A stretch of 63,908 nt of DNA, filler included, from Sandaracinaceae bacterium (GTDB lineage Bacteria > Myxococcota_A > Polyangia > Polyangiales > JADJQN01), in assembly GCA_947483975.1 (NCBI GenBank). It is 3 parts of 3 records of this genome, joined end to end, with 100 filler letters (N's around TTAATTAATTAA, not from the genome) between each part and the next. Parts side by side here need not be neighbours in the genome. Positions count along the whole stretch, not along the records: positions 1 to 23,464 come from CANKOL010000041.1; 2 more parts are not named here. The stretch is one strand, 5' to 3'. Shown in pieces: positions 1-18,135 of this stretch. Under the pieces are notes generated by a model. The model ran no database searches, was not told the origin of the DNA, and saw only the letters and a list, made by a program, of their open reading frames with translations. How positions within the stretch are numbered: the first letter of the stretch is position 1; each line of letters opens with the position of its first letter. Made by a program: the position numbers and the translations under genes.

Positions 1-262
1 CAGAGCCCGCGCTCGACGAGCTCTTCGGGGATCAGCTTCGAGGGCGCGCCCGTCGAGGTGATCCACAGCTGATGCGCGGCGCGCGTCGCGGCGATGTGCA
101 GCAGATGCCGCGCCTCGTCGTCGGCGGGGTACGAGGCGGGGCTTGCCCGCGAGCGGCCCGAGGACGTGCATCGCGAAGTCGATGATCTCCTTGGTCGAGC
201 GGTAGCTGACCTCGAGCGGCTCGACGTCCGTCGACTGCAGGCCGAGGTCGTCGAGCATACCG
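1..262 (-). pseudogene. Duplicated, internally deleted copy of the 3' end of the HelD-like helicase gene
   Basis: 1-139 is identical to 3847-3985; 142-262 matches 4296-4416 with about 5 substitutions; net 308 bp missing between the blocks; the copy runs into the stop codon at the window edge. Confidence 0.93.
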
Positions 263-384
263 TCGTGCCCGCTAACCTCGAGGACGAGGCTGCGCCTCGC
301 CGTTTCGCTGCAGTACCACGCGCGCGGATGCATGCTCGAAGCGCCAGGCGGGGCTTCGGTCGCTGGGGCGCGCGCGCGTGAGCA

Positions 385-735
385 TCACGGCGCAGGCTTG
401 CAATAGGTCGCGAGGCCCGGGCCGGCCACGCACTCCGAGAGGAGCGGGCACCGGGTGTACTCCGGCGCCGGATCGCAGAAGATCTCGCAGTACGACTCGT
501 GGCACGAGGCCGGCCACCCCAGGAGGTCTACCGGCTCGAGCCCGTGGCAGTCGAGGTCGGCCGCGCACGGCGCCGTGCAGCGGCCCGCGACGCAGCTGAG
601 TCTTGACTCGCACTCATTCTCTCCGTCGCACGGCTCCGTCAACAACCGCGGCCGCGGCTCGGGCGCGCAGCCAGCGAGCGCGAGCGCCGAAGAGATGCTG
701 GCCATCACCATCCACGCCGAGATGAAGCTACGCAT
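385..735 (-). CDS. Small Cys-rich lipoprotein
   Basis: MRSFISAW...ALALAGC lipobox; repeated C-x-x-x-x-(D/E)C motifs; AGGAGG RBS just upstream of ATG 735. Confidence 0.7.
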   Translation of the reverse strand: MRSFISAWMVMASISSALALAGCAPEPRPRLLTEPCDGENECESRLSCVAGRCTAPCAADLDCHGLEPVDLLGWPASCHESYCEIFCDPAPEYTRCPLLSECVAGPGLATYCKPAP

Positions 736-775
736 TTCGTCCTCCTGCCGAGTGGATCGGAACCTCTGACGAGCG

Positions 776-1255
776 CTACGGCTCAGGCAAACACCAGTGG
801 TCGCCCCCGTACAGCACGCACTCTTGGGCCAGCGCGCACTGACCAGGTAGCGCAGGATCACAGCGTACGACGCAGACGCCGCCCGTGGGTACGGCGATCG
901 GCAGACAGCTCGCTGTCTGTGGGCCGACCGGCGGGCAATCGCCGTCGACGGTGCACGGCGGCGAGCAACTCGCCCCTGTACGCGTCACGCCGAAGACGTC
1001 GCGCAGCGTGATGTTGACGCACGACTCCCCGACTCCGCAGAGATCCGCCCACGACGGACAGACCTCGTAGGTTGGAAGGTGACCAGCGTCGTTCGTTCCG
1101 AGGTCGGAGGCGGCGAAGTCGCGCAGCATCGCATCGTCGAGTCCGGCGTCGTCAGCGACAGCTCCGTCGAACCTCGGCCTCGGACTCACGCTCGCGGGAC
1201 AGCCTGGCAGCGCCAGTGCCAGCGTGAGCGCGAGTTGCATTCTCGACACTCTCAT
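776..1255 (-). CDS. Cys-rich lipoprotein
   Basis: MQLALTLALALPGC lipobox, D-rich DAG/DLG linker, C-terminal Cys-rich repeats. Confidence 0.7.
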   Translation of the reverse strand: MRVSRMQLALTLALALPGCPASVSPRPRFDGAVADDAGLDDAMLRDFAASDLGTNDAGHLPTYEVCPSWADLCGVGESCVNITLRDVFGVTRTGASCSPPCTVDGDCPPVGPQTASCLPIAVPTGGVCVVRCDPALPGQCALAQECVLYGGDHWCLPEP

Positions 1256-1326
1256 ACAGTGGGCTAACCACGCCTTTGTTGATGCCGACGTTGAGCGCCA
1301 GCCTCTCGAACAGGCATCCACGGTAG

Positions 1327-1881
1327 TCACCGTGTCCCCACTAGGTGCTCTTCGCATATGCTACCCGGCGTGATGAGGGTCCAAGTTCCTTCAAAGCGAA
1401 TCGCGCTCACGAAGCGATACGAAATCTCCGTACTCACTCCTCTGGGTGCCCCCCAGCATGGCGAGGTCCAGCGAGCAAACGACGTGCATTCGGGCGCAGT
1501 CGGCAAGCTCGTCTCGCAGTTCTCTGGGTTACAGCCTGCTTGAGAGCAGACGCCATCCACGAGCACCTGCATGCCGCTGTTTGATAGTTCGATGATCCCA
1601 TTCGTGCCCAGGCAGGAGTGGCTGTACGTCGCGTACCATGCGCCAGCGAGTCTGCTAGGGCATTCAAGCACCATCATGTCGCGCGATGCGTCGCCCGAAT
1701 CTCCTTGGCCTGCGTCAGAGGAGGAGTCGTATGCGTCTGCGTCGACGACGTCGGCATCCTCGGAACCGTCGATTCGAACGCCGAGCGAGTGGCTGCGATA
1801 GCAACCGCTGCCGACCACCACGAGCACGCAGAGAGTCGCGGCGTGAGCGCGTGACACAGTAGCCATGAGAGTGCCGTTCAT
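1327..1881 (-). CDS. Secreted lipoprotein, unknown function
   Basis: Hydrophobic LCVLVVVGSGC lipobox, acidic linker, Cys-containing C-terminal domain. Confidence 0.65.
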   Translation of the reverse strand: MNGTLMATVSRAHAATLCVLVVVGSGCYRSHSLGVRIDGSEDADVVDADAYDSSSDAGQGDSGDASRDMMVLECPSRLAGAWYATYSHSCLGTNGIIELSNSGMQVLVDGVCSQAGCNPENCETSLPTAPECTSFARWTSPCWGAPRGVSTEISYRFVSAIRFEGTWTLITPGSICEEHLVGTR

Positions 1882-1970
1882 TGGACTGCGCTGAGGTGAA
1901 GAAGGTGATACCCGGTCCAGTTGGTCGAGCACGTATGGCCGGCCAACTGGATCGCCAAGAAGTACTCTGT

Positions 1971-3503
1971 CTAGGGGCTCCGCGTGTCGCCGAAGACGTA
2001 CGGGTCGCCCGGCAGTGGCGGATCGAAGAGGTCGATCATATAGCCGGTCTGTGGAGCAGTGGGAACTGGGGTCGGCCGCGCGCAAAGTCCGGCCGTCGCC
2101 AAACTCGGGTAGAGGACGGCGTCGGTCGTGTCCTCGGCGTGTACGATCTCAAGCGCATCTGGTCGAACATAGACCCGCTTGAAGATGGGTAGAATGCGAA
2201 ACGACGACGGCACGAGATTCTTGATCATCGGCGGGATCTGCGCTCGCACTTCGCCGAGAGCGAGGGCTTCGACCTGGGCTTCAGATGCGACGCCGAAGAG
2301 CTGGAGGAAGTAGCCTCCTGCGCTCATCTGGAAGTCGACGGTCGAGCTCGGTTCGACGACGGCGGTCAGATGGCTCGTCGCGTCTGTCTCGATGCGGACG
2401 TCGATGGTGACCGCGAGGGTGCCCACGTAACCGATGGGCGTGTATAGGTAGAAGGTGCCGTAGAGGTGGATCGCGTCGCCACCAGTCGAACGGATCATCG
2501 GGCGGAGCACGATTCGGCTCTGCGGCGTGAGGCTGATCGTGCCGAGACCCGGCACCGTCATGCTCTGAACGGCGGTAGTCAGCGCTGGGACGACGGCCTC
2601 GAGGACGTCGCGCCACGGCATGACGCTGGAACACTCTCCGCGGTCGTACTGGCGGACGATGCGCGTGCCGTTCCAGGGAACGGGTACACCGAGGGATGCT
2701 GCTAGCGCCGCGGGCGAGAAGCTGACGGTCTCCGTGCTGGTGCTCACGCGCGGGTAGTAGATGCGGACCACGTTGGAGCCACCGGGACCGAAGCCGATCG
2801 CAGTCGGAGTCTGGTCGAAGACGTCGATGAAGCTGTCCGCGTCGCCGCGGTAGCCGATCGACGAGGGCACGGAAGAGAAGTACTGCGTGGAGGTGGTGTC
2901 CGGCAGTGGCCGACGCGGGTCCGGCGCGCCGACGCCCACGAGCTCGCGGGGCGGGCACGGGCCACGGCGGCTGCTGAAGGGCGCGTAGTCCGATGTGCAG
3001 ATCGCCGCGGTGTTTCCCGTCGTGCACTCATCGCGGAACTTGGTTACGGAGCCGGCGGGATCGGCGCAGGCGGTCCAGCCTTCCTCGAGGCCATAGAGCG
3101 TGACGTAGCCGGCGCCGTCGGTGCGTGCGCGCACCAGCGCCCGGGCTCCGGTGCGCCCAACCCTCCAGTACGTGCTCGGGACGACCACGCTGGTGGACCA
3201 CGGATACCAGCTGGTGCCGAAGGCCGACGTGAAGCCGCTGCCGCTCGTCGCTGACGCGATGTTCGCGAACACGCCCGTCGCCGGGTTCTGCGCCTCGACG
3301 CGAATGATCGTGGCAGCTGCGTTGTGGTAGCCGTTGAACGGTATCGACGTCGTCCGCGTACCGATGCGCGCGCCGTCCGTCGGACTGCCGATGCATCCGG
3401 TCATCGCCGCAATCATCATCGCTGCGGCGCCGATGCTAGCGGCCGTTAGAAACGAGAAACGAGAAACGAGAAACGAGAAACGAGAAACGAGAAACGATCT
3501 CAT
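1971..3503 (-). CDS. Secreted lipoprotein (510 aa), unknown function, with heptamer repeat in its signal peptide
   Basis: Long ORF with globular composition; AAAMMIAAMTGC lipobox. Confidence 0.75.
   Translation of the reverse strand: MRSFLVSRFSFLVSRFSFLTAASIGAAAMMIAAMTGCIGSPTDGARIGTRTTSIPFNGYHNAAATIIRVEAQNPATGVFANIASATSGSGFTSAFGTSWYPWSTSVVVPSTYWRVGRTGARALVRARTDGAGYVTLYGLEEGWTACADPAGSVTKFRDECTTGNTAAICTSDYAPFSSRRGPCPPRELVGVGAPDPRRPLPDTTSTQYFSSVPSSIGYRGDADSFIDVFDQTPTAIGFGPGGSNVVRIYYPRVSTSTETVSFSPAALAASLGVPVPWNGTRIVRQYDRGECSSVMPWRDVLEAVVPALTTAVQSMTVPGLGTISLTPQSRIVLRPMIRSTGGDAIHLYGTFYLYTPIGYVGTLAVTIDVRIETDATSHLTAVVEPSSTVDFQMSAGGYFLQLFGVASEAQVEALALGEVRAQIPPMIKNLVPSSFRILPIFKRVYVRPDALEIVHAEDTTDAVLYPSLATAGLCARPTPVPTAPQTGYMIDLFDPPLPGDPYVFGDTRSP
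3448..3496. repeat. Perfect heptamer tandem repeat (AGAAACG)x7
   Basis: Counted directly: 7 copies, 49 bp, within the first codons of ORF 1971-3503. Confidence 0.95.
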
Positions 3504-3845
3504 GCGTGCCCCAATTGGCCGACCTGGCCCATCACGAGTGGTACAACATTGCGAACCACCGTACAGATTGGAACTGTCTTCGTCAAGCGCCGTTCGGAGG
3601 TCGGTGGTCGACGCTCTTGTGGTTCGGCGCCTCCCGCTCAGTGCGCGAGCAGGGCTACGTCGCGAACGTGAAGCGAGCCCGGGAAGATGTCGGCGAGCAG
3701 CGCCGCGAGCCGTGGCGACAAGTTCTTATCGAAGAGCAGCTTCGCGCCGCCGGGACCAGGAACAACCGGCGCTCGCGGTCGGCGGCGAAGGCGAGGCGCG
3801 CGCGCAGGTCGTTCCGTGTCAGATCCTCGACGCGCACGCAGCTCT

Positions 3846-6362
3846 TCAGAGCCCGCGCTCGACGAGCTCTTCGGGGATCAGCTTCGAGGGCGCGCCCGTC
3901 GAGGTGATCCACAGCTGATGCGCGGCGCGCGTCGCGGCGATGTGCAGCAGATGCCGCGCCTCGTCGTCGGCGGGGTACGAGGCGGCGCTGACCTCGATCA
4001 GCACGACGTAGTCGAACTCGAGGCCCTTCACTTGGCGCACGTCGGTGACGTCGATGCCCGCCTTGAACGGGAAGTCTTGGTCGGCGATGCGGCGCAGGTT
4101 CGGGACCTCCGCGTTCGCGAGCCCGCGGTAGTAGATGTCGGCCTGCTCGGGGTAGCGCGCGACGATGGCGATCGACGCGAGCGGCTCGGCGCGGACGAGA
4201 TCGCGGAGCGCCTCACCGAGGAAGCCGACCGCGTCGCCGGAGTGCGCAAACCTGAACAGCTCGATCGGCGCGCCCTCGCGCGTCGCCTTGCCGGGCTTGC
4301 CCGCGAGCGGCCCGAGGACGTGCGTCGCGAACTCGATGATCTCCTTGGTCGAGCGGTAGCTGACCTCGAGCGGCTCGACGTCGGTCGACTGCAGGCCGAG
4401 GTCGTCGAGCACGCCGCGCCAGTTCGTGAAGCCGTTGTCCATGTGCAGGCGCTGCGCGACGTCGCCGGCGAGCGTGACGCTCTTCTGCGCGGAGACGGTG
4501 TCGAGCACGACGGACATCTCGACGGGCGAGAGGTCCTGCGCCTCGTCGATCAGGACGTGCTCGTACTGCAGCGCTTCCTTACCGCCGCCGCGCGCGGACC
4601 TGCGCGCCGCGCCTGAGCCGCCCTGCGCGCCGGGCTTCCGGAGCGGGCCGCGCATGCGCTGCCAGAGGCGGAGCAGGAGCGTGTCGTCCTCGTGATCGAG
4701 GGTCGCGCGCGCCTCCTCCTCCTCGTCGCGCCCGTCGATGCCCGTGCGGCGCTCGCGCTCCTCGTCGGGGTCGACCTCGGCCGCCTCCTCCTCCTCGAGC
4801 GACTTGCGGGAGTCGCGCTCTTCCTTCTTTTCTTCGGTGATCCCGGCGCGCGCCTCCATCTCGTTGACGGCGGAGCCGATGCGCATCGCGCACCACTTGT
4901 GCGCCTCGTCGAGGTCCTCGGCCGAGAGCGCGCCCGCGCCGTGCGCCGCGAAGATGGCGCCGAGGGTCGTGCGATCGGTCGTGATGTCGGCGAACGCCGT
5001 GAACACATCGCGCGCGAACTCGCGCATCGACGAGCTCGCGCGGTCGACCGCGTGCCGCACGGGGAGCGGCGGCGCCTTGCTGCCAGCCTCGTCGCCGTTG
5101 GCCCAGAGCGACAGCAGCTCGACGCGCACGGCGAGCGGCTTCTTCGCGCCCTTGCGCCAGCGGCTGAGCGCCTCGTCGCTGCCCGCCGTGCCCGCGAGGG
5201 ACGCGCGCAGCTTCTCCTCGGCGCGGTCCCCGAGCGTGGCGACGTAAGCGTCGATCGCGCGCAGCATCGCCGGGTGCTTCTTCATGCGGACGACGACCGT
5301 CGGCGTCTCGTCGCTGTACTTCCGCGGGACGCGCGGCAGGTGCACGTGCCGGAGCTTCTGCACCCAGGCGTCGTAGGTGACGACGGGCACGCCCTCGACG
5401 CCGAGCGCCGGGAGGACCTTCGAGATGTAGCGAGCGAGCGCCGTGTTGAAGACGACGATCAGCATCTTGTCGACCTTGAAGCGCTTCGGGTCCTCGTAGG
5501 CGAGGTACGCGAGGCGGTGCAGGCCGATGGTCGTCTTGCCGGAGCCCGCGCCGCCTTGGATGACGACGAGGCCGGAGGACGCCTTCGTGATCAGCTCGAA
5601 CTGCCGCGGATCGATCAGCGACGCGATCTCGGGGAGGAACTTGTCCGCGCGCCCGTCGCCGTCGCGCCCGATGCCGAGCTTGCCGGGGCGGTGATAATGG
5701 TCGGGGCGATCGGCCGCGCCGGCGCCGCCGCTGAGCCGCGTGCTCGCGCCCGCGCGCTCCCACTTCTCGCGGCGCTTGAGGAACGTGCCCTGCGGCGAGA
5801 CGATCCGGCGGAGTGAGCCCTCGATGATCGCGAGGCTGCGGCGCGTCAGCACGTTGCCGTGCACCTCTTTGCCGCCGAAATTCTCCTCGTAGTCGTCGCC
5901 CTCGTCGTAGCGATAGAAGAGCCGGCTGACCGGCGCGTCGCGCCAGTCGACGATGCGGATGCCGGTGCGCCCGTCGAGGTACGTGGCCTTGCCGATCAGC
6001 ACCTCGCGCTTGCGGTTCCCCTCCTCGAGGACCATCCGGCCGAAGTACGGCGAGAGCGGGTCGGCGGGCGCGGTCGAGACTTGCGCGCGGCGGTTCGCGA
6101 TCTGCTGCAGGCGCTCCATCTCCTGGATCAGCGGCGGCACATCCTCCATGCGCGCCTCGGAGATCTGGTCGCGGAGCGCGAGCAGGTCCGCGTCGTAGTC
6201 CGTGCCGCCGTTGGACGGCGCGATGCTCTGCGCGGCGAGGTTCTTCTGCACGCGGAGGAGGACACGCTCCTCGTCGGCGGGGATGGCTGTGAGCTCTTCG
6301 TCGTGCGCAGCGTCGGTCGCGGGGGGCTTCGGCGGACTGAGATCGCGCAGGTCTGGCTTCAT
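3846..6362 (-). CDS. helD: HelD-like UvrD/Rep superfamily 1 helicase (RNA polymerase recycling ATPase family)
   Basis: Walker A GGAGSGKTTIGLHRLAYL, IVDWRDAPVSRLFY, DEAQD, GDVAQR, SYRS, KGLEFD, AATRA. Confidence 0.8.
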   Translation of the reverse strand: MKPDLRDLSPPKPPATDAAHDEELTAIPADEERVLLRVQKNLAAQSIAPSNGGTDYDADLLALRDQISEARMEDVPPLIQEMERLQQIANRRAQVSTAPADPLSPYFGRMVLEEGNRKREVLIGKATYLDGRTGIRIVDWRDAPVSRLFYRYDEGDDYEENFGGKEVHGNVLTRRSLAIIEGSLRRIVSPQGTFLKRREKWERAGASTRLSGGAGAADRPDHYHRPGKLGIGRDGDGRADKFLPEIASLIDPRQFELITKASSGLVVIQGGAGSGKTTIGLHRLAYLAYEDPKRFKVDKMLIVVFNTALARYISKVLPALGVEGVPVVTYDAWVQKLRHVHLPRVPRKYSDETPTVVVRMKKHPAMLRAIDAYVATLGDRAEEKLRASLAGTAGSDEALSRWRKGAKKPLAVRVELLSLWANGDEAGSKAPPLPVRHAVDRASSSMREFARDVFTAFADITTDRTTLGAIFAAHGAGALSAEDLDEAHKWCAMRIGSAVNEMEARAGITEEKKEERDSRKSLEEEEAAEVDPDEERERRTGIDGRDEEEEARATLDHEDDTLLLRLWQRMRGPLRKPGAQGGSGAARRSARGGGKEALQYEHVLIDEAQDLSPVEMSVVLDTVSAQKSVTLAGDVAQRLHMDNGFTNWRGVLDDLGLQSTDVEPLEVSYRSTKEIIEFATHVLGPLAGKPGKATREGAPIELFRFAHSGDAVGFLGEALRDLVRAEPLASIAIVARYPEQADIYYRGLANAEVPNLRRIADQDFPFKAGIDVTDVRQVKGLEFDYVVLIEVSAASYPADDEARHLLHIAATRAAHQLWITSTGAPSKLIPEELVERGL

Positions 6363-6462
6363 GGGGGGGGAAGGGTTAGCAGCCTTTGATCGGCGCGGCC
6401 AGGCTTGGGGAAAGCGCCCGCGAGGCGCCCACTGCGCGCGGAGAGCGGGTAGACTCGCGGCC

Positions 6463-7368
6463 ATGCGCCTCCTCTTCACGCTCGTCCTCGCCGGTGCGCT
6501 CGCGGCCTGTGGTGGAACCGACAGCGGCCCGCCGCCGCTCCGTGACCTCGGCCCGCGCGCGGACTCGGGGCCGAGCGATCTCGGCGCGCCGGTCGACGCG
6601 AACGGCTGGGACCTCGGCCCGCAGCCCGACCTCGGCCCCGCGCCGGATCTCGGCACCCTCGACGACGCTGGGCAGCCCGACGATGGCGCCGTCAGCATGG
6701 ACGCGGACGTCGCGGACGCGTCGAGCGACCTCGGCCTCGTGTCGATGCCGTGCACGGCGACGGGCGCCTGCGACCCGTTCGTCACGGACTCGTGCGGCGC
6801 CGGCTTCAGCTGCCGCCCGAACGCGACCGGCATGACCGAGTGCCTCGCCATCGCCGTGGACGCCAAGGTCGAGGGCGCGACCTGCGTCAGCGGCGGCGAC
6901 TGTCAGCCGGGGCTGCTCTGCCTCAACTTCGGCGGCGGCTTCACCTGCAACAAGATGTGCCCGCAGGGCTCGCTCGGCTTCTGCGGCGGTGAGGACCGCT
7001 GCTTCGGCACGATCGGCGACGCGTGCGTGCAGGTCTGCCGCCCGCGCCCCGAGCCCTGCGACATCTACCTGCAGAACTGCCCGCTCCCCGGCGACGCCTG
7101 CTCCCTCGCGACCGACCCCGAGACGCGCGCGCCCTACACCGGCTGCCGCCTCGCCGGCACCGTCGCGCACGGCGACCTCTGTGGCGGCACGGCGGGCGCC
7201 TGCGCGGCTGGGCTGATTTGCATCCGTGAGACCGTCGACGGCGGCTCCGTCTCGACGTGCAAGCAGGTGTGCGGGCCCGACGCCGGCGCACCGATGTGCA
7301 CGTTCGGCGGCGAGGCGTGCACGGGCTTCGCGCGCACCTGGGGCGTCGGCTACTGCCGCACGCCCTGA
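6463..7368 (+). CDS. Cys-rich lipoprotein with DLG-repeat linker
   Basis: MRLLFTLVLAGALAAC lipobox; DLGP repeats; Cys-rich repeats. Confidence 0.8.
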   Translation: MRLLFTLVLAGALAACGGTDSGPPPLRDLGPRADSGPSDLGAPVDANGWDLGPQPDLGPAPDLGTLDDAGQPDDGAVSMDADVADASSDLGLVSMPCTATGACDPFVTDSCGAGFSCRPNATGMTECLAIAVDAKVEGATCVSGGDCQPGLLCLNFGGGFTCNKMCPQGSLGFCGGEDRCFGTIGDACVQVCRPRPEPCDIYLQNCPLPGDACSLATDPETRAPYTGCRLAGTVAHGDLCGGTAGACAAGLICIRETVDGGSVSTCKQVCGPDAGAPMCTFGGEACTGFARTWGVGYCRTP

Positions 7369-7427
7369 CGACGCGCGCGCTGCGCGACGGCCCGCCCATC
7401 GCGACTGCCGCGTGTTACCGTTCGGCC

Positions 7428-9146
7428 ATGCGCGTAGAGCACGGTCCGTCTTTCCTCCGCCTTCCTTCTCTGTCGCTCGCTGTCTTGCCGCTCGTCTGTC
7501 TGCTCGCGCTCTCGGCGTGTGCGACGGGCGAGAGCACGCCGGACGGGGGGCGCCGCGACGGCAGCGTGCTCGCCGACGGGCAGGTCTTGCCGGACGGCAG
7601 CGGCCCGCGACCGCGCTGCGGCACGGTCGGCGGAGGCTGCTGCACCGGGCGCACCTGCGAGCTTGGGCTGAGCTGTGGGCGCGGCGATCAGTGCTGCGCG
7701 ATCCCCGGCGGCGCGCGCTGCAGCGCGGCGAGCGACTGCTGCGTCGGCTACGCCTGCACGGCGGGCGAGTGCGTCGCGCCCGCGGGCTCCGGCTGTCATG
7801 GCTCGAGCGACTGCGCGCACGGCCTCGTCTGCGACGCCGGGCGCTGCGTGTCGCCGCCGACGGATCCGGGCACCGGGATGCCCGCTTGCGGCAGCGTCGG
7901 CGGGACGTGCTGTGCGGGCTTCACCTGCAGCGCGGGCAGCGTGTGCTCGACCGGCACCTGCGCGTCGTGCGGCGACACCGGGCAGCCCTGCTGCGACGGC
8001 GCGACCGGCTGCACTGGCTCCCTCGCGTGCATGGGCGGTAGCTGCGTGGCGCCGACGGCTTGCGGCGACGACGGTCAGCCCTGCTGCGCGCCCGGCGCGA
8101 CCTGCTCGGGCGGGCTCGAGTGCACCGGCGGCACCTGCGGCAGCGTCGCGACGGCCGGCGGGATGGGCGAGCCCTGTCGCCCGCGCAACGTCTGCGACGA
8201 GGGCTTCGTCTGCGACCCGATGATGCGTCAGTGCGTGACCGTCCCGGACACCTGCGGCACCGACGGACAGATGTGCTGCCCGCCCGCGACGGCCGGCACC
8301 TGCTCCGGCGCGCTCTCCTGCGAGAGCGGGGCGTGCTCGACCTGCAAGGGGCCGAGCATCTCCTGCCTGCTCGGCGGGCTCCCCGGCCAAGAGTGCTGCG
8401 CCGGCGCGGTCTGCCGCCCCGCGCCGTTCATCCCGCGCTGCTGTCAGGGCGAGGGCAACCCCTGCACGAACTCGCTCGACTGCTGCGGCTTCATGTCGTG
8501 CACCGACGGGATGTGCACCGCTTCGACCGAGGGCACGTTCTGCATCGACTCGTCGGAGTGCGCGGACGGGCTCGTCTGCGACAGCTTCCAGTGCACGCCC
8601 GGGATGTCGATGTGCGTCGACCCCGGCACGGCGTGCGGCGCGATGGGCGCGGCGGCGTGCTGCGGCGGGCTCTCTTGCCGCGAGATCACGCAGGGCACCG
8701 ACCCGCTCTGCTGCGCCGAGAAGGAAGGCTCCTGCCAGACCTCGACGGACTGCTGCGGCAAGATGCTCTGCACGGACGGCGCGTGCGCCTGCCAGACCGA
8801 GATCCAGACCTGCACCGAGGACGGCGACTGCTGCGACGGGCTGATCTGCGTCGTCGGCTCGTGCACCGTCGACGACGGCTGTCAGCGCGAGCGCACCGAC
8901 TGCATGACCGACAGCCAGTGCTGCGGCCTGCTCGTCTGCGGCCTGCAAGAGGACGGCAACCGCAACTGCTGCGCGAGCGACGCGCAGCCCTGCGTGACGA
9001 CCGAAGACTGCTGCGGCCTCATGCAATGCGTCGAGAGCTCGTGCTCGTGTCGGATGTCGGGCGACCCCTGCGCGGGGGACCGCGACTGCTGCGGCGCGAG
9101 CACGTGCGACAAGACGAGCGGCTCGCTGACAGGCACCTGTTCGTGA
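7428..9146 (+). CDS. Very Cys-rich repeat lipoprotein
   Basis: LLALSAC lipobox followed by many CG..G..CC and C....DCC....C repeats. Confidence 0.8.
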   Translation: MRVEHGPSFLRLPSLSLAVLPLVCLLALSACATGESTPDGGRRDGSVLADGQVLPDGSGPRPRCGTVGGGCCTGRTCELGLSCGRGDQCCAIPGGARCSAASDCCVGYACTAGECVAPAGSGCHGSSDCAHGLVCDAGRCVSPPTDPGTGMPACGSVGGTCCAGFTCSAGSVCSTGTCASCGDTGQPCCDGATGCTGSLACMGGSCVAPTACGDDGQPCCAPGATCSGGLECTGGTCGSVATAGGMGEPCRPRNVCDEGFVCDPMMRQCVTVPDTCGTDGQMCCPPATAGTCSGALSCESGACSTCKGPSISCLLGGLPGQECCAGAVCRPAPFIPRCCQGEGNPCTNSLDCCGFMSCTDGMCTASTEGTFCIDSSECADGLVCDSFQCTPGMSMCVDPGTACGAMGAAACCGGLSCREITQGTDPLCCAEKEGSCQTSTDCCGKMLCTDGACACQTEIQTCTEDGDCCDGLICVVGSCTVDDGCQRERTDCMTDSQCCGLLVCGLQEDGNRNCCASDAQPCVTTEDCCGLMQCVESSCSCRMSGDPCAGDRDCCGASTCDKTSGSLTGTCS

Positions 9147-9151
9147 GCCCG

Positions 9152-10717
9152 ATGCGCCCCTGGCGCATCACCGTCTCCCTCGTCGCCCTGCTGCTCGCGG
9201 CAGGGACCGGGACGGCGCACGCGCAGAGCTGGCCCGTCGCAGATCCGGCCGCGTCGTCCGAGCAGCGCGGCGACGAGGCGCCGGCGACAGAGACGCCGCC
9301 TGCGGTCGAGGTCGCCGATACGCCCCCCGACGCAGCCCCGCGCGCTGAGCAAGCCGCCGCGTCCGTCGTCGCTGCGTCGTCAGCGCCAGCGACCGAGGCT
9401 GACGCCGCCGCCGAGGCGCCCGCCGCCGATGATGGCTTCACGTTCGGCTCCTACGGGCGCGTCGTCGCCGCGAGCGATCTGCGCGGGCGCGCCGGGCGTG
9501 AGGCCGACCTCACCGCGTACAACCCGCGCCTCGACGAGGGCGTCTACACCGAGCTCGAGCTGCGCCATCGCTGGCACGTCGACGGCATGGACACGCTGAT
9601 CGTCGCGACGCTCGGCATCGCGGGGCCGATCTTCCACTACGACGCGAAGTTCGAGGAGTCGTTCGCCGTCCGCAACCTCTTCGCCGAGGTCAACCACGTC
9701 TTCACCGACGGGCTCGCCGTCTGGGCGGGCTCGCGGATGGTGCGCGGCGACGACGTCTATCTCCTGAATTTCTGGCCGCTCGACAACCTCAACATGGTCG
9801 GCGGCGGGCTGCGCTACGCGCTCGCCGAGCAGCTCGAGTTCGCCGCGCACGTCGGCTTCTCGGAGCCGAACGACCCGTTCTATCGGCAGAGCGCCTCGGT
9901 GCCCGCGCGCCTCGGCATCGCGCCCGAGACCATCCTGACGCTCGACCGCCCGCGCCTCGTCGTCGCCGAGAAGGTCACGTATTGGCCCTTCGGGCGCATG
10001 GAGGACCGCGGGCTCAAGGCGATCCTCTACGCCGAGCAGCACGCGCTCCCGAGCGGCACTCGGAACGACGTCTCGGGCGCCCCGGAGGTGCTCCCGCGCC
10101 AAGACGGCTGGGTCCTCGGCGGGCAGATCGGCGGCTGGATCAGCCCCGCGCACGCCTTCGTCAACGTGTTCGCGCGGTACTCGTCGGGGCTCGCGGCGTT
10201 CAACCCGCTCGACGCTCCCTTCCGCACCGGCGGCACGACCATCTCGACGTCGGCCGCGGGCGAGCTGATGCTCGCGCTCAGCGCCAACTGGGAATACGGC
10301 GCGTTCGGCGTGCAGGCGGGCGCGTTCTATCGCCGCTACACCGACCCGTCCGCGACGGCGTTCGGCGGCGGTCAGGTCGCGGAGGGCGTCTTCACGCTCC
10401 GCCCGCAGGTCTCGTTCGGCAAGTACGCCGGGCTCGCCGTCGAGGGCGCGTATCAGGCGCTGCAGACGACGAGCGTCGACGAGACGACGGGCGAGTTCCG
10501 CGGCGGCACCGCGTGGAAGCTCGGCGTGATGCCGTTCATCTCGCCGTTCGGCCGCGGCACCTACACGCGCCCGCAAATACGCCTGATCTATTCGCTGACC
10601 GCGCGCGACGCCCGCTCGCGCAGCCTGTCTCCGGTGGGAGATCCCGGAGCGACCGAGCAGACCGAGCACTTCCTCGGGATCGGAGTCGAGTGGTGGTTCA
10701 ACAGCTCCTATCTATGA
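9152..10717 (+). CDS. Carbohydrate porin, LamB/maltoporin-like
   Basis: Signal peptide AHAQ; FGSYGR N-terminal strand, WAG..M.RGDD.Y, C-terminal GVEWWF; stop overlaps the amylase ATG. Confidence 0.75.
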   Translation: MRPWRITVSLVALLLAAGTGTAHAQSWPVADPAASSEQRGDEAPATETPPAVEVADTPPDAAPRAEQAAASVVAASSAPATEADAAAEAPAADDGFTFGSYGRVVAASDLRGRAGREADLTAYNPRLDEGVYTELELRHRWHVDGMDTLIVATLGIAGPIFHYDAKFEESFAVRNLFAEVNHVFTDGLAVWAGSRMVRGDDVYLLNFWPLDNLNMVGGGLRYALAEQLEFAAHVGFSEPNDPFYRQSASVPARLGIAPETILTLDRPRLVVAEKVTYWPFGRMEDRGLKAILYAEQHALPSGTRNDVSGAPEVLPRQDGWVLGGQIGGWISPAHAFVNVFARYSSGLAAFNPLDAPFRTGGTTISTSAAGELMLALSANWEYGAFGVQAGAFYRRYTDPSATAFGGGQVAEGVFTLRPQVSFGKYAGLAVEGAYQALQTTSVDETTGEFRGGTAWKLGVMPFISPFGRGTYTRPQIRLIYSLTARDARSRSLSPVGDPGATEQTEHFLGIGVEWWFNSSYL

Positions 10718-12531
10718 GAGTCCGCGTCCCCGCGCTGCTGCTCGCGTCGCTCGTCGTCGTCGGCAGCGCCTTCGGCAGCAGCAGCGGCTGCGTCGGCGGC
10801 GACGTGCTCACCGGCGCGCAGGTCCCGATGACGCACCAGGTCGACGACTGGCGCGACGAGGTCGTCTATCAGCTGCTGACTGACCGCTTCGCCGACGGCG
10901 ACCCGCGCAACGACTGGCGCGTCGACCGCAGCGGCATGGCCCGCTATCACGGCGGCGACTACCTCGGCGTCGTCTCGCAGCTCGACTATCTGAGCGAGCT
11001 CGGCGTGACGGCCATCTGGATCAGCCCGATCGTCTTGAACGTCGACACCGACGCTGGCGTGGACGCCTATCACGGGTATTGGGCGGTCGATCTACAGCGC
11101 CTCAATCCGCACTTCGGCGACCTCGGCGCGCTCCGCGAGATGGTGCGTGCGTGCCACGCCCGCGGCATCAAGGTGATCCTCGACATCGTCACGAACCACC
11201 TCGGGCAGGTGTTCTATTACGACATCAACCAGAACGGGCGCCCCGACGACAACGTCTATGGCTCCGGCACCGCGAGCCCGCTGACGCGCCTCACCGAGTA
11301 CGACCCCGACTACGACGGACGCGGGATTCAGTCGTATACGTCGCTCGGCGAGGCGGGCGCGGCGCCGATCAAGTTCTTTCATATGCCGGACGTGTTCCGC
11401 ATGCCGCCGATGCCGGAGATCTTTCAGCACCCGGAGGCGTACAACCGCCGCGGGCGCATCACCGACTATGGGATTCAAGAGCAGGTCGTCTATGGTGACT
11501 TCCCCGGCGGGCTCAAGGACCTGAACACCGCGAATCCCGACGTCCGAGAGGCGCTGATCGCGTCGTATACGGACTGGATCCTCAAGACGGATATCGACGC
11601 CTTCCGCATCGACACGCTCAAGCACGTCGAGCACGAGTTCTGGCAGATCTTCTGTCAGCAGGTGCGCGAGCGGCTCGCGCTCGCGGGCAAGACCAACTTC
11701 TTCATGTTCGGTGAGGCGTTCGACGGCGACGACACGCTGCTCGGCTCGTACACCGCGCCGAACGAGCTCGACGCCGTCTTCTACTTCTCGCAGAAGTTCC
11801 AGGTGTTCGGGGACGTGTTCCTGCACGGGCAGCCGACCAAGAAGGTCGAGGAGCTCTACGGGCAGCGCGCCGCGCACTACGGGCTCACGCCGCAGCCCGG
11901 CGGCATCGGCGTCGCGCCGCGCGACGCGCTCGTGAACTTCCTCGACAACCACGATGTCCCGCGCTTCCTCTACGAGTTCACGGACGGGGCAGAGGGGCAC
12001 TTCGAAGAGGGGCGCGCGCGGCTCAAGGCGGCGCTCGCGTATCTGCTGACCGAAGATGGAATCCCCTGCATCTATTACGGCACTGAGCAGGACTACTCGG
12101 GCGGCAACGACCCCGCGAACCGCGAAGATCTCGCGTGGAGCGGCTACCGCACGGACGGCGACACCTTCCAGTGGATCGCCAAGCTCACGCACCTCCGCCG
12201 GGCATATCCCGCGCTCCGCCGCGGCAACTTCACGCTGCGCTGGACGACCGAGCGAGTCGGCGCGGAGCAAGACGCGGGCCTCGTCGCCTTCGAGCGCGCG
12301 CTCGACGCCGAGTACGCGCTCGTCGTCATCAACACGCGCGACAAGGTGAGCGAGACGAGCGCGACCAGCCTCGGCGGCGGCGCGATGCTCGTCGGCGCAG
12401 CGCCCGGCACCGTCCTCGTCGACGTGCTCGGCAGCGGGCCCGACGTGACGGTGAGCGGCGCGGGACAGGCGACGATCAGCGTCGGACCGTTCGGCGCAGC
12501 GGTCTACGTGCCGAACGCGCAGCGGCGGTGA
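10714..12531 (+). CDS. GH13 alpha-amylase family lipoprotein
   Basis: YQLLTDRFADGD, YHGYW, DIVTNH, FRIDTLKHV, GEAF, FLDNHD, GIPCIYYGTE; SSSGC lipobox. Confidence 0.92.
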   Translation: MRVRVPALLLASLVVVGSAFGSSSGCVGGDVLTGAQVPMTHQVDDWRDEVVYQLLTDRFADGDPRNDWRVDRSGMARYHGGDYLGVVSQLDYLSELGVTAIWISPIVLNVDTDAGVDAYHGYWAVDLQRLNPHFGDLGALREMVRACHARGIKVILDIVTNHLGQVFYYDINQNGRPDDNVYGSGTASPLTRLTEYDPDYDGRGIQSYTSLGEAGAAPIKFFHMPDVFRMPPMPEIFQHPEAYNRRGRITDYGIQEQVVYGDFPGGLKDLNTANPDVREALIASYTDWILKTDIDAFRIDTLKHVEHEFWQIFCQQVRERLALAGKTNFFMFGEAFDGDDTLLGSYTAPNELDAVFYFSQKFQVFGDVFLHGQPTKKVEELYGQRAAHYGLTPQPGGIGVAPRDALVNFLDNHDVPRFLYEFTDGAEGHFEEGRARLKAALAYLLTEDGIPCIYYGTEQDYSGGNDPANREDLAWSGYRTDGDTFQWIAKLTHLRRAYPALRRGNFTLRWTTERVGAEQDAGLVAFERALDAEYALVVINTRDKVSETSATSLGGGAMLVGAAPGTVLVDVLGSGPDVTVSGAGQATISVGPFGAAVYVPNAQRR

Positions 12532-12575
12532 GGCGGGGCTGAGCGCGGGCGAGGGCAGGCAGCGCGAACCTTTGG

Positions 12576-12632
12576 GGCTCGCGCCGGTCGGGGGACGTGC
12601 TCGATGGCTCGCGCCGGTCGGGGGCCGTGCTC
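12576..12632. repeat. 30-bp-period direct repeat x2
   Basis: ggctcgcgccggtcggggg(a/c)cgtgctc at 12576 and 12606. Confidence 0.7.
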
Positions 12633-12756
12633 ATCGGACGGGGCGCGTCTCCTCGCGGAGGGACGTGAGATGACCTTCGAGCGACCCCGGCAAACAACCC
12701 GCTGCGGCGAACGCCCGTCCGCCTGCGCTCGTCCCCCGACCGTCGCTCTGTGTGGA

Positions 12757-13310
12757 GATGGGGACGGCGGCCCCGAGGTCCTGCACCTCCGCGACGTCGC
12801 CTAGGTGGTGTTGCAGCACCTCGTCCTCACGAACGCGGCGATCAATGGCCTCAACATCGACGACGGCGGCACCTTCGACACCCCCGCGCACCACGTCGTG
12901 CTGCGTGACGTCGAGGTGCGCGACATCGGCACGGGCGGCAACAACGACTGCATCAAGCTCTCGGGGCTCGACGACTACTTCGTCCTCGACAGCCGCGCGC
13001 TGCGCTGCAACGCAGGCGACGCGATCGATCACGTCGGCTGCCACCGCGGCTTCATCCACGGCTGCGCCTTCTCGGACTCGAGCGGCGGCGGCATCCAGAT
13101 GAAGGGCGGCTCCTCCGACATCCTCGTGCACGGCAACACGTTCACGGACATCGCCGCGCGCGCCATCAACGCAGGCGGCAGCACCGGACTCCCCTACTTC
13201 CGCCCCGTCGACGCGCCGTCGAGGGCTCCACGGCCGACTTCCAGGCCACGTGCTGGCACCCGACCTCGCCGAGCATCGGCGCCATCCAGGCCACCAGCTG
13301 CACGATCTAA
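12757..13310 (+). pseudogene. Decayed right-handed beta-helix (pectin lyase-like) protein gene
   Basis: NGLNIDDGG, NNDCIKLSG, GDAIDHVGC, GGIQMKGGS beta-helix rungs; no 5' end, in-frame TAG at 12802, then a jump to a C-terminal SIGAIQATSCTI* in another frame. Confidence 0.7.
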
Positions 13311-13390
13311 CCGAGCGAGTCGGCGCGGAGCAAGACGCGGGCGTCGTCGCCTTCGAGCGCGCCGCAGACGCCGAGTACACGCTCGTCGTC
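13310..13390 (+). pseudogene. Second, short copy of the amylase 3' region
   Basis: Matches 12247-12327 (TERVGAEQDAG.VAFERA.DAEY.LVV) with a few substitutions. Confidence 0.88.
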
Positions 13391-13578
13391 GACGCTGACG
13401 GTGACGAGCCTGACTCCCGCGCGCATCGCCGCGCACCAGGGGCGCGTGGGCAGCCTGATGGCGCTCGGGGGCGCGACTGCGCCCTCGTCGACGCTTCGCC
13501 GCGCGCCGTGGCGCGGACGCCGCGGTCCGGCCTCGCGGGGAAGCGTCGGGGGACCCACCTTGCTCCGGCGCGCGCCAC

Positions 13579-13604
13579 GTGACTACAATGTGGCCACACG
13601 GAGG
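13579..13604 (+). promoter_or_regulatory. Putative promoter/operator of mazEF-like operon
   Basis: Imperfect palindrome GTGACTAC-AAT-GTGGCCAC containing a TACAAT -10, followed by GGAGG RBS. Confidence 0.55.
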
Positions 13605-13613
13605 CACGACGCG

Positions 13614-13868
13614 ATGAAGGCTCACATCGTTCGCATCGGCAACTCGCAGGGGCTACGACTCCCGAAGCTCGTCCTCGAGCAGACGGGCCTGTCCGGCGAG
13701 GTGGAGCTCGAGGTGGACGGCAACTGCCTCATCATCCGGTCTCCGAAGCGGACGCGGGAGGGCTGGAGCGAGGCCTTTCAAACGATGCGCGCCAACGGCG
13801 ACGATGCGCTCGTCGACGGCGATGCGGCCTCGGCGACCGCGTGGGACGAGGCAGAGTGGCGTTGGTAG
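13614..13868 (+). CDS. mazE: AbrB/MazE/SpoVT family antitoxin
   Basis: MKAHIVRIGNSQGLRLPK motif; C-terminal WDEAEW.W; overlaps toxin. Confidence 0.9.
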   Translation: MKAHIVRIGNSQGLRLPKLVLEQTGLSGEVELEVDGNCLIIRSPKRTREGWSEAFQTMRANGDDALVDGDAASATAWDEAEWRW

Positions 13869-14185
13869 TGCGTCGCTTCGACGTCGTCCTGGTGAACCTC
13901 GACCCGACGGTCGGCGCCGAGATCCAGAAGACGCGCCCCTGCCTGGTGGTCTCGCCCGACGAGATGAACGCCAACCTTCGCACGGTGCTGGTCGCGCCGA
14001 TGACCACTCGCGGGCGCCCGTACCCGACGCGTATCGCCTGCAAATTCCAGAAGAAGGACGGCACCATCGTGCTCGACCAGCTCCGCACGGTCGACGGAGC
14101 GCGGCTCGTCAAGAAGCTCGGACGCCTCGACGCCAGCACCCAGCGCAAAGTGCTCGCGCTCCTCGCGGAGATGTTCGCGCCGTAG
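13862..14185 (+). CDS. mazF: PemK/MazF family endoribonuclease toxin
   Basis: RFDVVLVNLDPTVGAEIQKTRPCLVVS, APMTT, DQLRTVD. Confidence 0.92.
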   Translation: MVVRRFDVVLVNLDPTVGAEIQKTRPCLVVSPDEMNANLRTVLVAPMTTRGRPYPTRIACKFQKKDGTIVLDQLRTVDGARLVKKLGRLDASTQRKVLALLAEMFAP

Positions 14186-14367
14186 TTGGGTCGCTTCCCT
14201 CTGTGCCCACGCCGCCTGAGACAGGCTTCCGCTCGATATCTTTGTCCTGATAGCTGGAGAATGGCGTCGCCGGCTTCCTACAGGCGACTACGCGCGAGCG
14301 CGGGCAACAGCGGCGCGGTGTCCGTCGACTGGGCCGTGAGGTGCGGATTGACGCTACGCTGAGCCCC

Positions 14368-15372
14368 ATGCGTCTCTGGGTCTCCTTCGCGCTCAGGATG
14401 GCCATCGCGCTCGGACTCACGTCGAGCGCCGCGGCGCAGGCGCGCGGCTGGCGGACGCTCCATCTCGGAGGCGGGCTGCGCGCGACGCGCTATCTGCCGA
14501 CCTCGGTGCGGCCGTGCGACCCACTGCCGCTCATGCTCTTCTTGCACGGCGCGGGCGGTACGCCCGAGGGCTACTACGCGACGCTCGAGGGCGACGCAGA
14601 GGCGCTCGGCGTCGTGCTCGTGCTGCCGCAGGCGACGGGCGCCGGCTGGAGCGACGCGGACGTCCCGACCGTCGCCGCCGCGCTCGACGCGGTGCGCGCG
14701 GAGCTGAACGTTGACGAGACGCGCACGTACTTCGCGGGCCACTCGGCGGGCGGAGCGTTCGCGTATTTGCTCGCGTACGAGGGCACCACGGGCATCGCCG
14801 CGGTCTTCACGATGGCGGCGCCGTTCTACGCCGTCACGGCCCTCGCGGACCCGACCTACGCCGCCGCGATCCACATGTACTACGGGGCCGACGACCCCAA
14901 CTACACGGGCGGCTCTGCGTCACGCCTGCAGGCGCAGTGGACGCGCTTCTCCGTGCCGCAAGAGACGGATCTGCAGGTCGGCTATGGGCACTCGAGCTGG
15001 CCTCCCACGTCGATCCGGGCGGGCTTCGACTTCCTCCTCGCGCACCGATACCCGGGCACGCCGACCGCGTCGATGTGCACGGGCGACGCGGACGCTGGAG
15101 CGCGCTTGGACGCAGGCGAGCCGCTCGACGCGGGCACGTCGCTCGGCGACCTCGGCGCGGCGCGATGGGACGGTGGAGTCCCGAGCGTCGACGGCGGGGG
15201 AGCCACCCGCACGCCGCGCGGGGACCTCTCGAGCGGCTGTGGCTGTCGCATCGCGGAGCCCGCGGTGCGTGGCGCGTGGTCGGCCCCGCTCGCTTGCGCC
15301 GTCCTCGCGCTCGCCGTCGCGCGTCGGCGCGGACGCGCGCGAGCGCTCAAGCGGGCGCGAGCAGCGCGCTGA
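14368..15372 (+). CDS. Secreted alpha/beta-hydrolase (esterase) with C-terminal MYXO-CTERM sorting signal
   Basis: Signal peptide; LHGAGG, GHSAGG nucleophile elbow, GYGH; C-terminal SSGCGCR...hydrophobic...RRR. Confidence 0.8.
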   Translation: MRLWVSFALRMAIALGLTSSAAAQARGWRTLHLGGGLRATRYLPTSVRPCDPLPLMLFLHGAGGTPEGYYATLEGDAEALGVVLVLPQATGAGWSDADVPTVAAALDAVRAELNVDETRTYFAGHSAGGAFAYLLAYEGTTGIAAVFTMAAPFYAVTALADPTYAAAIHMYYGADDPNYTGGSASRLQAQWTRFSVPQETDLQVGYGHSSWPPTSIRAGFDFLLAHRYPGTPTASMCTGDADAGARLDAGEPLDAGTSLGDLGAARWDGGVPSVDGGGATRTPRGDLSSGCGCRIAEPAVRGAWSAPLACAVLALAVARRRGRARALKRARAAR

Positions 15373-15396
15373 GCTCGCGCTGCAGCGGCGTCGTGA

Positions 15397-15954
15397 CCTG
15401 ACGACAACGTCTACGGCTCGGGCACCGCGAGCCCGCTGACGCGCCTCACCGCGTACGACCCCGACTACGACTCACGCGGGATTCAGTCGTATACCTTGTT
15501 TGGTGAGGCGGGCGCGGCGCCGATCAAGTTCTTCCACATGCCGGACGTGTTCCGGATGCCGCTACGGGCTCACACCGCAGCCCGGCGGCATCGGCGTCGC
15601 GCCGCGCGATGCGCTCGTGAACTTCCTCGACAACCACGATGTGCCGCGCTTCCTCTACGAGTTCACGGACGGCGCAGAGGGGCACTTCGAAGAGGGCCGC
15701 GCGCGCCTCAAGGCGGCGCTCGCGTATCTGCTGACCGAAGACGGCATTCCTTGCATCTACTGCGGCACTGAGCAGGACTACTCGGGCCGCGACGACCCCG
15801 CGAACCGCGAAGACCTCGCGTGGAGCGGCTACCGCACGGACGGCGACACCTTCCAGTGGATCGCCAAGCTCACGCACCTGCGCCGCGCAGATCCCGCGCT
15901 CCGCCGCGGCAACTTCACGCTGCGCTGGACGACCGAGGGCGCAGCGGCGGTGAG
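15397..15954 (+). pseudogene. Third copy of the amylase 3' part, with two internal deletions, ending at the stop codon
   Basis: 15397-15561 = 11242-11406; 15562-15937 = 11877-12252; 15939-15954 = 12517-12532 (includes TGA). Confidence 0.93.
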
Positions 15955-16034
15955 TGTCAGCGCGCCCCGACTCGAGCGGTCCCGCAAGTGGGCGCCTGGC
16001 TCGCCGCGGCAGTCAGAGTGGTATCGTGGCCCGC

Positions 16035-16574
16035 ATGAACCGCGTCGCGCTCGGGCTGACCATCGCTCTCGCCACGTCGGGGTGCACGAGGGGCCCAGCG
16101 CCCGCGTCCCCGACTCCCCCGCTCGCTGTGACGGTGAGCGCGGCCCCGCCCACCGCGGCCCCGCCCATCGCGGCCCCGCCCATCGCGGCCCCGCCCGTCG
16201 CGGCGGTTCCGCCGGCGGTCGTCGCGGAGAACGTCCCGGAGGACCCACCCGATGCGGCGCCTGCGAGCGGCGACGCGATCGACAGGCTGGTGGCCTACCT
16301 CCGCACGACGGGCGGCATGTGGGTCAATGGGCTGTCGCCGACCCTCCACCTACCCGCGACGGCCACGCCCGACGAGGTGGCCGCGCGAGCGCTGCGAGGC
16401 TACGACGGGCTGAGGACTACCCACGTCGTGCTCGTGCGCCACGTGGACCTCGGCGACAGCGATATCCGCGACACGGCCGCTTTGGTGGACACCAACCTCG
16501 GCCAGCGCATCGTGCTGATGGGCTTTGACCGAGCGCGCGGGTGGGACACGAAGGTATTCGACACCAGTCGATAG
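16035..16574 (+). CDS. Lipoprotein with Pro/Ala 15-bp repeat linker
   Basis: MNRVALGLTIALATSGC lipobox; AAPP(T/I/V) repeats. Confidence 0.65.
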   Translation: MNRVALGLTIALATSGCTRGPAPASPTPPLAVTVSAAPPTAAPPIAAPPIAAPPVAAVPPAVVAENVPEDPPDAAPASGDAIDRLVAYLRTTGGMWVNGLSPTLHLPATATPDEVAARALRGYDGLRTTHVVLVRHVDLGDSDIRDTAALVDTNLGQRIVLMGFDRARGWDTKVFDTSR

Positions 16575-16773
16575 GCGAGCGCCGCGCGCCCCGCGACCCG
16601 AGCGAGGATGGCTTCCGCGTCGACGCTCGGCGCGGCATCCTTCGCCGTATCCGCAGCAACGCCGAGATTGTGCTGCGGCCCACCCTCGCATAGGGTCCCT
16701 CTGTGCGTGAAGTGGGGACTGCCACATGGAGAGGCGACGCGTCGCGCGTTCGGAGGGCCACGCGCCGCCGCCC

Positions 16774-17583: not shown

Positions 17584-17688
17584 GCGTCCAAATCCACCAC
17601 CCATCGGTCGCGCCCCGCGCCTTTCGTCCGCGAGCGCTGTGCTGTGAGCTCGAGGAGCTGTTCCTGAAAGGCGCGTAGGTGCCGGTCC

Positions 17689-17994: not shown

Positions 17995-18135
17995 GCGTCG
18001 GGCATAGCGCGCCTCGCGCGGGTCGTCTCGACCGCGGCCGTGAAGCGCGAGGTCAGTCGAGCCTGGACGCGCTCACATGTGCCGGCAAGAAGCTCGTCAA
18101 GGACCGGCACGGCGAGCATCACCCGCAGGGGTGGC

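Follow-up and report, generated by a model that had tools for sequence, protein, structure and literature searches.

Gene tails copied behind accessory cargo in a Sandaracinaceae genome: a chromosomal variant of known insertion processes, with IS91/ISCR-like ends at some loci

It is established that a single crossover between a chromosome and a circle carrying a gene tail and cargo leaves the gene, the cargo and a second tail in a row (PMC3240628). Such an arrangement is found twice in the DNA described here, a stretch of 63,908 nucleotides ("the window") from the Sandaracinaceae bacterium assembly GCA_947483975.1, in which an intact gene for a HelD-like helicase and an intact gene of the GH13 alpha-amylase family are each followed by accessory genes and then by a 5'-truncated direct copy of their own 3' region. 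The closest described system is that of complex class 1 integrons with ISCR1 (insertion sequence common region 1), which likewise show an anchor, cargo and a truncated direct copy of the anchor, together with IS91-like ends that lack inverted repeats. In the model of Toleman et al. 2006, as summarised in PMC7707992 and PMC3575428, this layout results from circles that recombine homologously with the duplicated flank on re-entry. Insertion with long target duplication (Furuta, Abe, Kobayashi 2010, PMC2853133) involves inserts below 20 kb, direct repeats above 30 bp (46 to about 420 bp) of imperfect identity, and no integrase. In E. coli, single-crossover insertion-duplication, studied with homology-facilitated illegitimate recombination (HFIR), turned trimmed and re-circularised DNA into RecA-dependent gene-end duplications; lacZ-end duplications were found in 56 of 60 analysed recombinants and measured 109-950 bp in the 14 that were sequenced (Amarir-Bouhram et al. 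2011, PMC3240628). Finally, the IS91/IS1294 elements, of the same Y2-HUH transposase family as the element ends described below, mobilise adjacent DNA when termination fails, in 1-10% of events (PMC13181058), and IS91 circles and duplications have already been reported on a plasmid of an environmental bacterium (PMC5737581).

In how they work, the loci described here resemble both ISCR1 complex integrons and insertion with long target duplication, but they belong to neither. In place of the qacEdelta1-sul1 3'-conserved segment, the anchors are many chromosomal genes; no intI was seen among the 20 open reading frames (ORFs) scanned and no resistance cargo was seen, no transposase stands at the locus, and element ends occur at three of eight loci. 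Inserts of 3.6 and 2.9 kb with repeats originally of 566 and 1290 nt lie within the size limits of long target duplications. The cargo differs, consisting of toxin-antitoxin and lipoprotein genes with no restriction-modification genes among the cargo ORFs scanned, and the repeats, which reach 1.3 kb, are coding tails with internal deletions; the absence of another mobile element from the insert holds for helD and not for the amylase. Unlike the E. coli case, which concerns a laboratory plasmid and in which HFIR proper usually deletes (PMC3240628), the present duplications are natural, repeated and polymorphic, and, compared with IS91 and IS1294, the activity, cleavage sites and termini of the present element are putative. 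Since integrase-free long target duplications (PMC2853133), single-crossover gene-end duplication (PMC3240628) and ISCR arrays with truncated flank copies (PMC7707992) are all in print, this is a chromosomal variant of known processes and not a new integron. What the analysis adds is the genome-wide count, the allelic signature, the adjacency of element ends in two genomes and erosion seen as population polymorphism; literature searches aimed at myxobacterial or chromosome-wide cases, in an open-access library, listed no such title. These loci represent a route by which small accessory cassettes enter a chromosome without integrase, att sites or breakage of the target gene, and suggest that the ISCR mechanism of resistance plasmids extends to ordinary genes on the chromosome of an environmental myxobacterium.

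The two window loci

The genome (5.29 Mb in 524 contigs, 81% complete) contributes contig C41 as positions 1-23464 of the window; C-numbers below denote contigs of the genome named. Genes were called with our own hexamer caller, and the family scan of 1-23464 covered 20 of 141 listed ORFs, which include most of the 22 called genes. Duplications were detected by self-BLASTN, with E-values from 1e-27 to 1e-171, and a genome of the same genus, G001, served as the relative. The features of the helD locus are as follows.

1-257, minus strand: helD tail copy (gene 4411 to 3847), 5'-truncated, lacking 308 nt internally and cut off by the end of the contig; self-BLASTN
258-3845, minus strand: helD cargo, GC content 0.62-0.70
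3846-6362, minus strand: HelD-like UvrD-family helicase gene, intact, first anchor; Pfam UvrD/UvrD_C

The two pieces of this copy (window 1-139, corresponding to 3847-3985 at 100% identity, and 139-257, corresponding to 4293-4411 at 97.5%) meet with a 1-nt overlap across the deletion. The anchor gene was matched in all 41 genomes searched, and its top NCBIfam match, HelD_BACSU, scores 184 bits, under the cut-off of 419. Its cargo comprises a 482-aa ORF with no Pfam match, three short ORFs that resemble Cys-rich lipoproteins, and a broken toxin-antitoxin remnant immediately behind the helD stop codon (DUF5615 fragment at 3641-3742, E 1.6e-6); this cargo is not found behind helD in G001. No homologue was found for 258-384, at the 5' junction of the copy, and no trace of an IS91-like element was found at helD. 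At the start of the 482-aa ORF, a 7-nt unit is repeated seven times (3448-3497), a candidate for slippage or phase variation at which contigs break in three sequencing runs.

The amylase locus is more complex.

10714-12531, plus strand: GH13 alpha-amylase-family gene, intact, second anchor, behind a LamB-like porin gene; Pfam Alpha-amylase (E 9e-55) and LamB
12609-12748, plus strand: IS91/ISCR-like 5' end region (putative terIS side); 17 matches in this genome, family alignment
12790-13214, plus strand: beta-helix gene, truncated (cargo); Pfam Beta_helix, E 1.5e-5
13310-13390, plus strand: second amylase piece, 81 nt (12247-12327, 92.6%); self-BLASTN
13614-14185, plus strand: mazE/mazF-type toxin-antitoxin pair (cargo); Pfam MazE_antitoxin, PemK_toxin
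14197-14264, strand not assigned: end remnant of a different insertion sequence; 82-84% to the end of an element with an rve transposase, multi-copy in G001
14368-15372, plus strand: secreted alpha/beta-hydrolase gene, an esterase resembling polyhydroxybutyrate depolymerases (cargo); family searches
15335-15397, minus strand: M24 peptidase gene tail, 64 nt with stop codon; 92% to C36:23016-23079, Peptidase_M24
15397-15954, plus strand: amylase tail copy (gene 11242 to 12532), 5'-truncated, ending at the stop codon; self-BLASTN
16026-16574, plus strand: Pro-rich lipoprotein-like ORF behind the amylase copy; own gene call, no Pfam or NCBIfam match
16651-16766, plus strand: IS91/ISCR-like 3' end (putative oriIS); 82.8% over 116 nt, E 1e-25, to DNA downstream of an intact transposase gene of G001

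The amylase copy retains 15397-15562 (11242-11407, 91.6%), 15562-15937 (11877-12252, 95.2%) and 15939-15954 (12517-12532, aligned by eye), the two deletions being 470 and 264 nt and the original span 1.29 kb. The 81-nt piece at 13310, absent from the initial annotation, covers almost only what this copy has lost by deletion. The peptidase tail, whose full gene lies on C36, is joined back to back with the 5' junction of the copy. Overlaps at junctions and deletions measure 0-2 nt, and self-BLASTN found no duplicated cargo at either locus. In G001, the block from amylase to helD (3846-12544) is colinear and 81% identical, neither tail copy is present, and different genes stand downstream of both anchors. 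A dip in GC content at third codon positions (GC3 of 0.83-0.90 in parts of the duplicated region) was considered as a mark of a donor segment and rejected because the GC3 of the amylase gene dips before the duplicated region too. A second MazF-type toxin-antitoxin pair lies at 20134-20708.

The initial annotation, made from the sequence by inspection, had described both genes as followed by cargo and a truncated tail copy, which self-BLASTN and contigs from other studies confirm. That the copies end at a stop codon holds for the amylase, whose last segment includes it; for helD this cannot be read from the window, because C41 begins 1 nt inside the stop codon. No contig end overlapping position 1 was found. 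Its statement that no integrase or transposase lies in 1-23464 stands for the proteins scanned and fails for the DNA, which holds IS91-like ends and the end of another insertion sequence.

Recurrence and population polymorphism

Tail copies of this kind recur across the genome. A direct-repeat scan of all 524 contigs gave 692 pairs on 114 contigs, from which hand curation retained eight same-contig loci at which the copied tail lies downstream of the gene (C26, C37, C41 twice, C102, C131, C287 and C451), against a single mirror-image locus with a head copy upstream (C51; one-sided p 0.02). The loci bear out the earlier proposal of a repeated, homology-driven insertion behind gene tails. Dropped before the count were internal repeats (C21, C362), an integrase-linked case (C30), an intergenic one (C302), a head copy downstream of its gene (C211), a copy upstream (C361), rows with neither copy in a gene, the repeats of C175 and C238, which we take to be template and variable repeats of retroelements, and C169 and C423, presumably tandem Rpn-like genes. 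Contig ends interrupt three further candidates (C334/C428, C23/C44 and C289/C489), which could be strain forks. Five single-copy fragments were found on another contig outside genes, and all five lie within 46 nt of a gene end, one of these ends being just a contig edge. Cargo across the loci often consists of toxin-antitoxin or nucleotidyltransferase genes, and at C287 paralogous lipoproteins stand behind both gene and copy. At C37, the relative has the empty site, and the DNA past the 38-nt copy continues into the ancestral neighbour, C192, so that insertion is demonstrated at this locus.

None of 24 amylase-matching loci with flanks of up to 10 kb has an amylase tail copy or an element end, and the 53 relative loci with 1.5-kb flanks have no tail copy outside the genome under study, results that reject a hotspot conserved across the order. 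A metagenome scan returned one contig, 79% identical, reaching 410 nt behind helD with no repeat, and a phage scan, which was uninformative, one contig that has the ori motif but lacks repeats.

Other sequencing runs show that the junctions are real and that the loci vary. At least half of the words of window 1-10000 are present in 14 of 22 listed runs, all 14 of them lake or freshwater metagenomes and four of them possible sources of the assembly. Four runs (X1, itself a possible source, X5 of study P3 and X11 of study P4 among them) were compared as assembled contigs with summed contig depths. In X11, a 3780-nt contig consists of 3846-4292 followed by 139-3477, starting at the last base of the helD stop codon and joining an undeleted 566-nt helD copy to the cargo. 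The original spans first estimated, about 0.57 and 1.3 kb, agree with this form and with the 1.29 kb of the amylase. In X5, contigs 13313-15450 and 15908-17315 cross the 5' junction and the 3' end of the amylase copy. An assembly artefact is therefore rejected, the junctions recurring in contigs of other studies.

Because deleted and undeleted helD copies both exist and cargo differs between runs, the erosion of spent tails that had been proposed and the variability of the cargo are seen directly. In X5, the helD cargo has a depth of 7-9 against 21-26 for the flanking genes (about 0.35x), so that only part of that population carries it. In X11 the corresponding depths are 131-134 and 98-101 (about 1.3x), a weak hint of excess only, since the cargo is lower in GC, X1 shows 1.1-1.2x and contig depths are summed. 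Around the amylase, X11 and the window are about 3% divergent; in X11 the truncated beta-helix gene runs on with other letters, and 331 other letters replace 13215-14197, which includes the mazE/mazF-type pair. There is little cover over 15341-16520, a stretch without cover and not a spanned joint, and X11 probably lacks the amylase copy while having the esterase cargo. With the loci polymorphic in lake populations, the birth, erosion and loss of such duplications become testable.

Several other repeats and fragments of this genome have features of their own. At C211:7024-7098, 75 nt from the start region of a gene are repeated downstream of that gene, an arrangement outside the tail pattern. 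At C489:1651-2306, fragments of three loci are chained end to end and followed by a lipoprotein gene, the parts being two pieces from C51, the first from a gene (88%) and the second 96.5% identical, and the tail of a gene that we take to be argB-like (100%), the other gene names in this chain being likewise our assumption. At C361:3183-5264, a chimeric pseudogene with internal deletions, formed from the DUF2961 gene of C361 and a paralogous gene of C133, adjoins two IS91-like 5' ends. C238 and C175 carry reverse-transcriptase, accessory-protein and target genes with template and variable repeats, sets presumably akin to diversity-generating retroelements.

Allelic divergence, element ends and competing explanations

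Over 538 aligned sites (omitting the 13 rows of the last, 15-nt segment, which was misaligned by one base), the amylase copy and its gene differ at 31, of which 22 are third positions, all 22 synonymous. This exceeds the 39% synonymous changes expected under duplication and immediate decay (p 3e-4). Polarised on G001, the copy branch has 10 of 17 changes synonymous against 24% for neutral change (p 0.002), and synonymous changes number eleven on the gene branch and ten on the copy branch. The excess implies that the copy spent most of its evolution as a functional allele of another lineage, or that the intact gene was later replaced; the copy is thus probably the allele of another lineage and not a fresh tandem duplicate. 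Reverse-transcribed copies were also considered and rejected, the differences being mostly synonymous and without adenine bias.

The initial annotation had envisaged no mobile element, a view not supported as it stands, since IS91-like ends bracket the amylase cargo and adjoin other copies. An IS91-type transposase of 484 aa is present in G001 as two intact copies; the G001 ORF L085:3479-4933 passes the cut-offs for Y2_Tnp and Zn_Tnp_IS91, and the transposase falls under the NCBIfam cut-offs for IS91 and for ISCR, clade Ia included (NF052416, 290.9 against 925 bits; NF033538, 81.6 against 125). The genome under study has IS91-like remnants on 28 of 524 contigs, with transposase fragments 57-100% identical and at most 184 aa long, none of them in the window, and the family was found in 73 of 121 genomes from this order. 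Sixteen aligned copies, including window 16651-16766, share a sharp 3' boundary about 230 nt past the transposase stop codon, marking a putative oriIS end. The 140-nt 5' family, a putative terIS side to which 12609-12748 belongs, folds and overlaps the region upstream of the transposase in 11 other copies of this genome; against the intact G001 element only its second half matches (E 5e-4), and no cleavage tetranucleotide site was identified in it. These matches place an element end on either side of the amylase cargo and copy, correctly ordered as 5' and 3', and no transposase accompanies them.

The 5' ends stand close to the duplicated tails, 78 nt from the amylase stop codon (with a partial tandem start at 12580-12603), 67 nt from the end of the C131 copy and 47 nt from the start of the C37 copy. 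A 5' end lies within 80 nt of a stop codon or copy edge at three of eight loci, compared with 8 of 3482 genes whose stop codon has such an end within 250 nt; the resulting p of about 2e-5 is overstated, because hotspots attract elements and cargo alike. Among 22 5' ends, 11 lie within 250 nt behind a same-strand stop codon, against 26% of random intergenic points. On C2 of G001, IS91 remnants adjoin three copies of the tail of a coiled-coil gene, and on C6 a copied Uma2 tail precedes an intact gene for the IS91-type transposase on its upstream side, with another insertion sequence between; these are two of 9 regions fetched for IS91 matches, whereas none of 8 regions fetched for other reasons has a tail copy. 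A truncated flank copy on the ter side was seen at C131, C37, G001:C2 and G001:C6, indirect at the amylase, and absent at helD and four other loci. The G001:C2 copies (L090:4849-6449, 17606-19206 and 20275-21426) are 1.6-kb direct repeats, 99.6% identical, that bracket 11 kb of other genes and, judged by their sequence, constitute an IS91 mini-element with a captured gene tail in an ISCR-like array.

The reading that we favour, at a probability of roughly 55%, is single-crossover integration of tail-bearing circles, some of them made by IS91-type read-through. DNA of a related strain, with the 3' part of a gene and neighbouring accessory genes, would become a circle, and this circle would recombine through the gene tail in a Campbell-type single crossover by RecA. 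The anchor gene would stay whole, with the cargo next to it and a second, promoterless tail then eroded by deletions, in that order of events. At the amylase and several other loci, the circles would probably come from an IS91/ISCR-like rolling-circle element reading through its terminator into the adjacent tail, the transposase being supplied in trans; an element sitting behind a stop codon or inside a gene tail would pick up tails that differ in length, C131 and C37 being examples. Motifs that we take to be recA and pilT-like occur in this genome.

Several observations weigh against this account. Other copies pooled have 21 of 41 synonymous differences (p 0.07), the helD copy one of four, and the excess at the amylase could come from later replacement of the intact gene by another allele. 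No empty site is available for either window anchor, because G001 carries other genes behind both. The order at the amylase (5' end, cargo, copy, ori) needs extra deletions under the ISCR model, and X11, with the esterase cargo but no amylase copy at flank depth, means that cargo can stand without a copy. No intact IS91-type transposase is assembled in this genome, most of the 22 5' ends have no tail copy, the profile for element ends was trained on these same copies, and no IS91 trace was found near five of the eight loci (helD, C26, C102, C287 and C451), the helD and C451 copies lying at contig edges.

Those five loci without element traces speak for a possible if less probable course in which no element takes part: linear DNA of a related strain would be trimmed, close into a circle and enter by a single crossover, or would attach through homology at one end and by an illegitimate join at the other, the IS91 ends being passengers at the same hotspots. 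This corresponds to the mechanism first proposed and to insertion with long target duplication. Overlaps of just 0-2 nt, the back-to-back fragments of unrelated genes (the peptidase tail at 15335-15397 and the C489 chain), a ComEC/Rec2 gene above its cut-off on the contig after C41 (23620-25410) and DprA in G001-G003 are in keeping with it, as is the preponderance of gene-end duplications among the E. coli recombinants. It sits less well with the element ends directly adjoining copies at C37, C131, C51 and G001:C2 and their orientation bias, with the deletions, not duplications, that classical HFIR yields (PMC3240628), and with the failure to find Ku in either this genome or G001, or DprA in this genome at its 81% completeness. 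Local tandem duplication of tail and downstream DNA, with complementary deletions and a later swap of the intact gene for another allele, is improbable. It would explain why the piece at 13310 is what the main copy lacks and why C287 has paralogous lipoproteins behind gene and copy, and the 3% difference of X11 in the amylase region makes alleles for such swaps available; it is opposed by the lack of duplicated cargo at both window loci, the 8:1 asymmetry of tails to heads, the insertion at C37 and the near-equal synonymous changes on the two branches. Islands that replace a gene's 3' end through an integrase since lost, or chimeric assembly, are very improbable. The 38-nt copy of C37 is of att-like size and C30 has an integrase with a 28-nt repeat; set against this, copies of 38-1290 nt in eight unrelated genes have no common core, no integrase family occurs among the scanned ORFs of 1-23464, and the junctions recur in other studies.

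Beyond single-crossover integration, a broader conjecture is doubtful: that in this myxobacterial lineage an IS91/ISCR family, for the most part non-autonomous, inserts behind stop codons with the terminator pointing towards the gene and repeatedly captures tails in the manner of Helitrons, whose gene-fragment capture is a related Y2-HUH case of mobilised adjacent DNA, giving rise to genome-wide, integrase-free cassette traffic. If it were true, many chromosomal genes would become RecA landing pads for toxin-antitoxin and lipoprotein cassettes still looping in and out in the lake populations, and the helD cargo depths of X11 and X5 would reflect live amplification and loss. The new integron-like arrays suggested at the outset are not supported, as neither an ordered addition of cassettes nor a promoter common to them is evident, and no IntI tyrosine recombinase stands beside the array among the ORFs scanned.

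Further observations along the genome

The C37 island of 12.6 kb includes a group II intron maturase gene within an IS91-like transposase gene (L064:8341-9651), together with a cas1 fragment and higBA. Elsewhere in the window, an IS91-like 5' end at 36055-36215 (C42:12491-12651) lies 116 nt behind a same-strand stop codon, and no tail copy was found for it. Tandem arrays whose period is 42 nt occur at 18132-18435 and at about 35696-36003, and are related to each other in inverted orientation.

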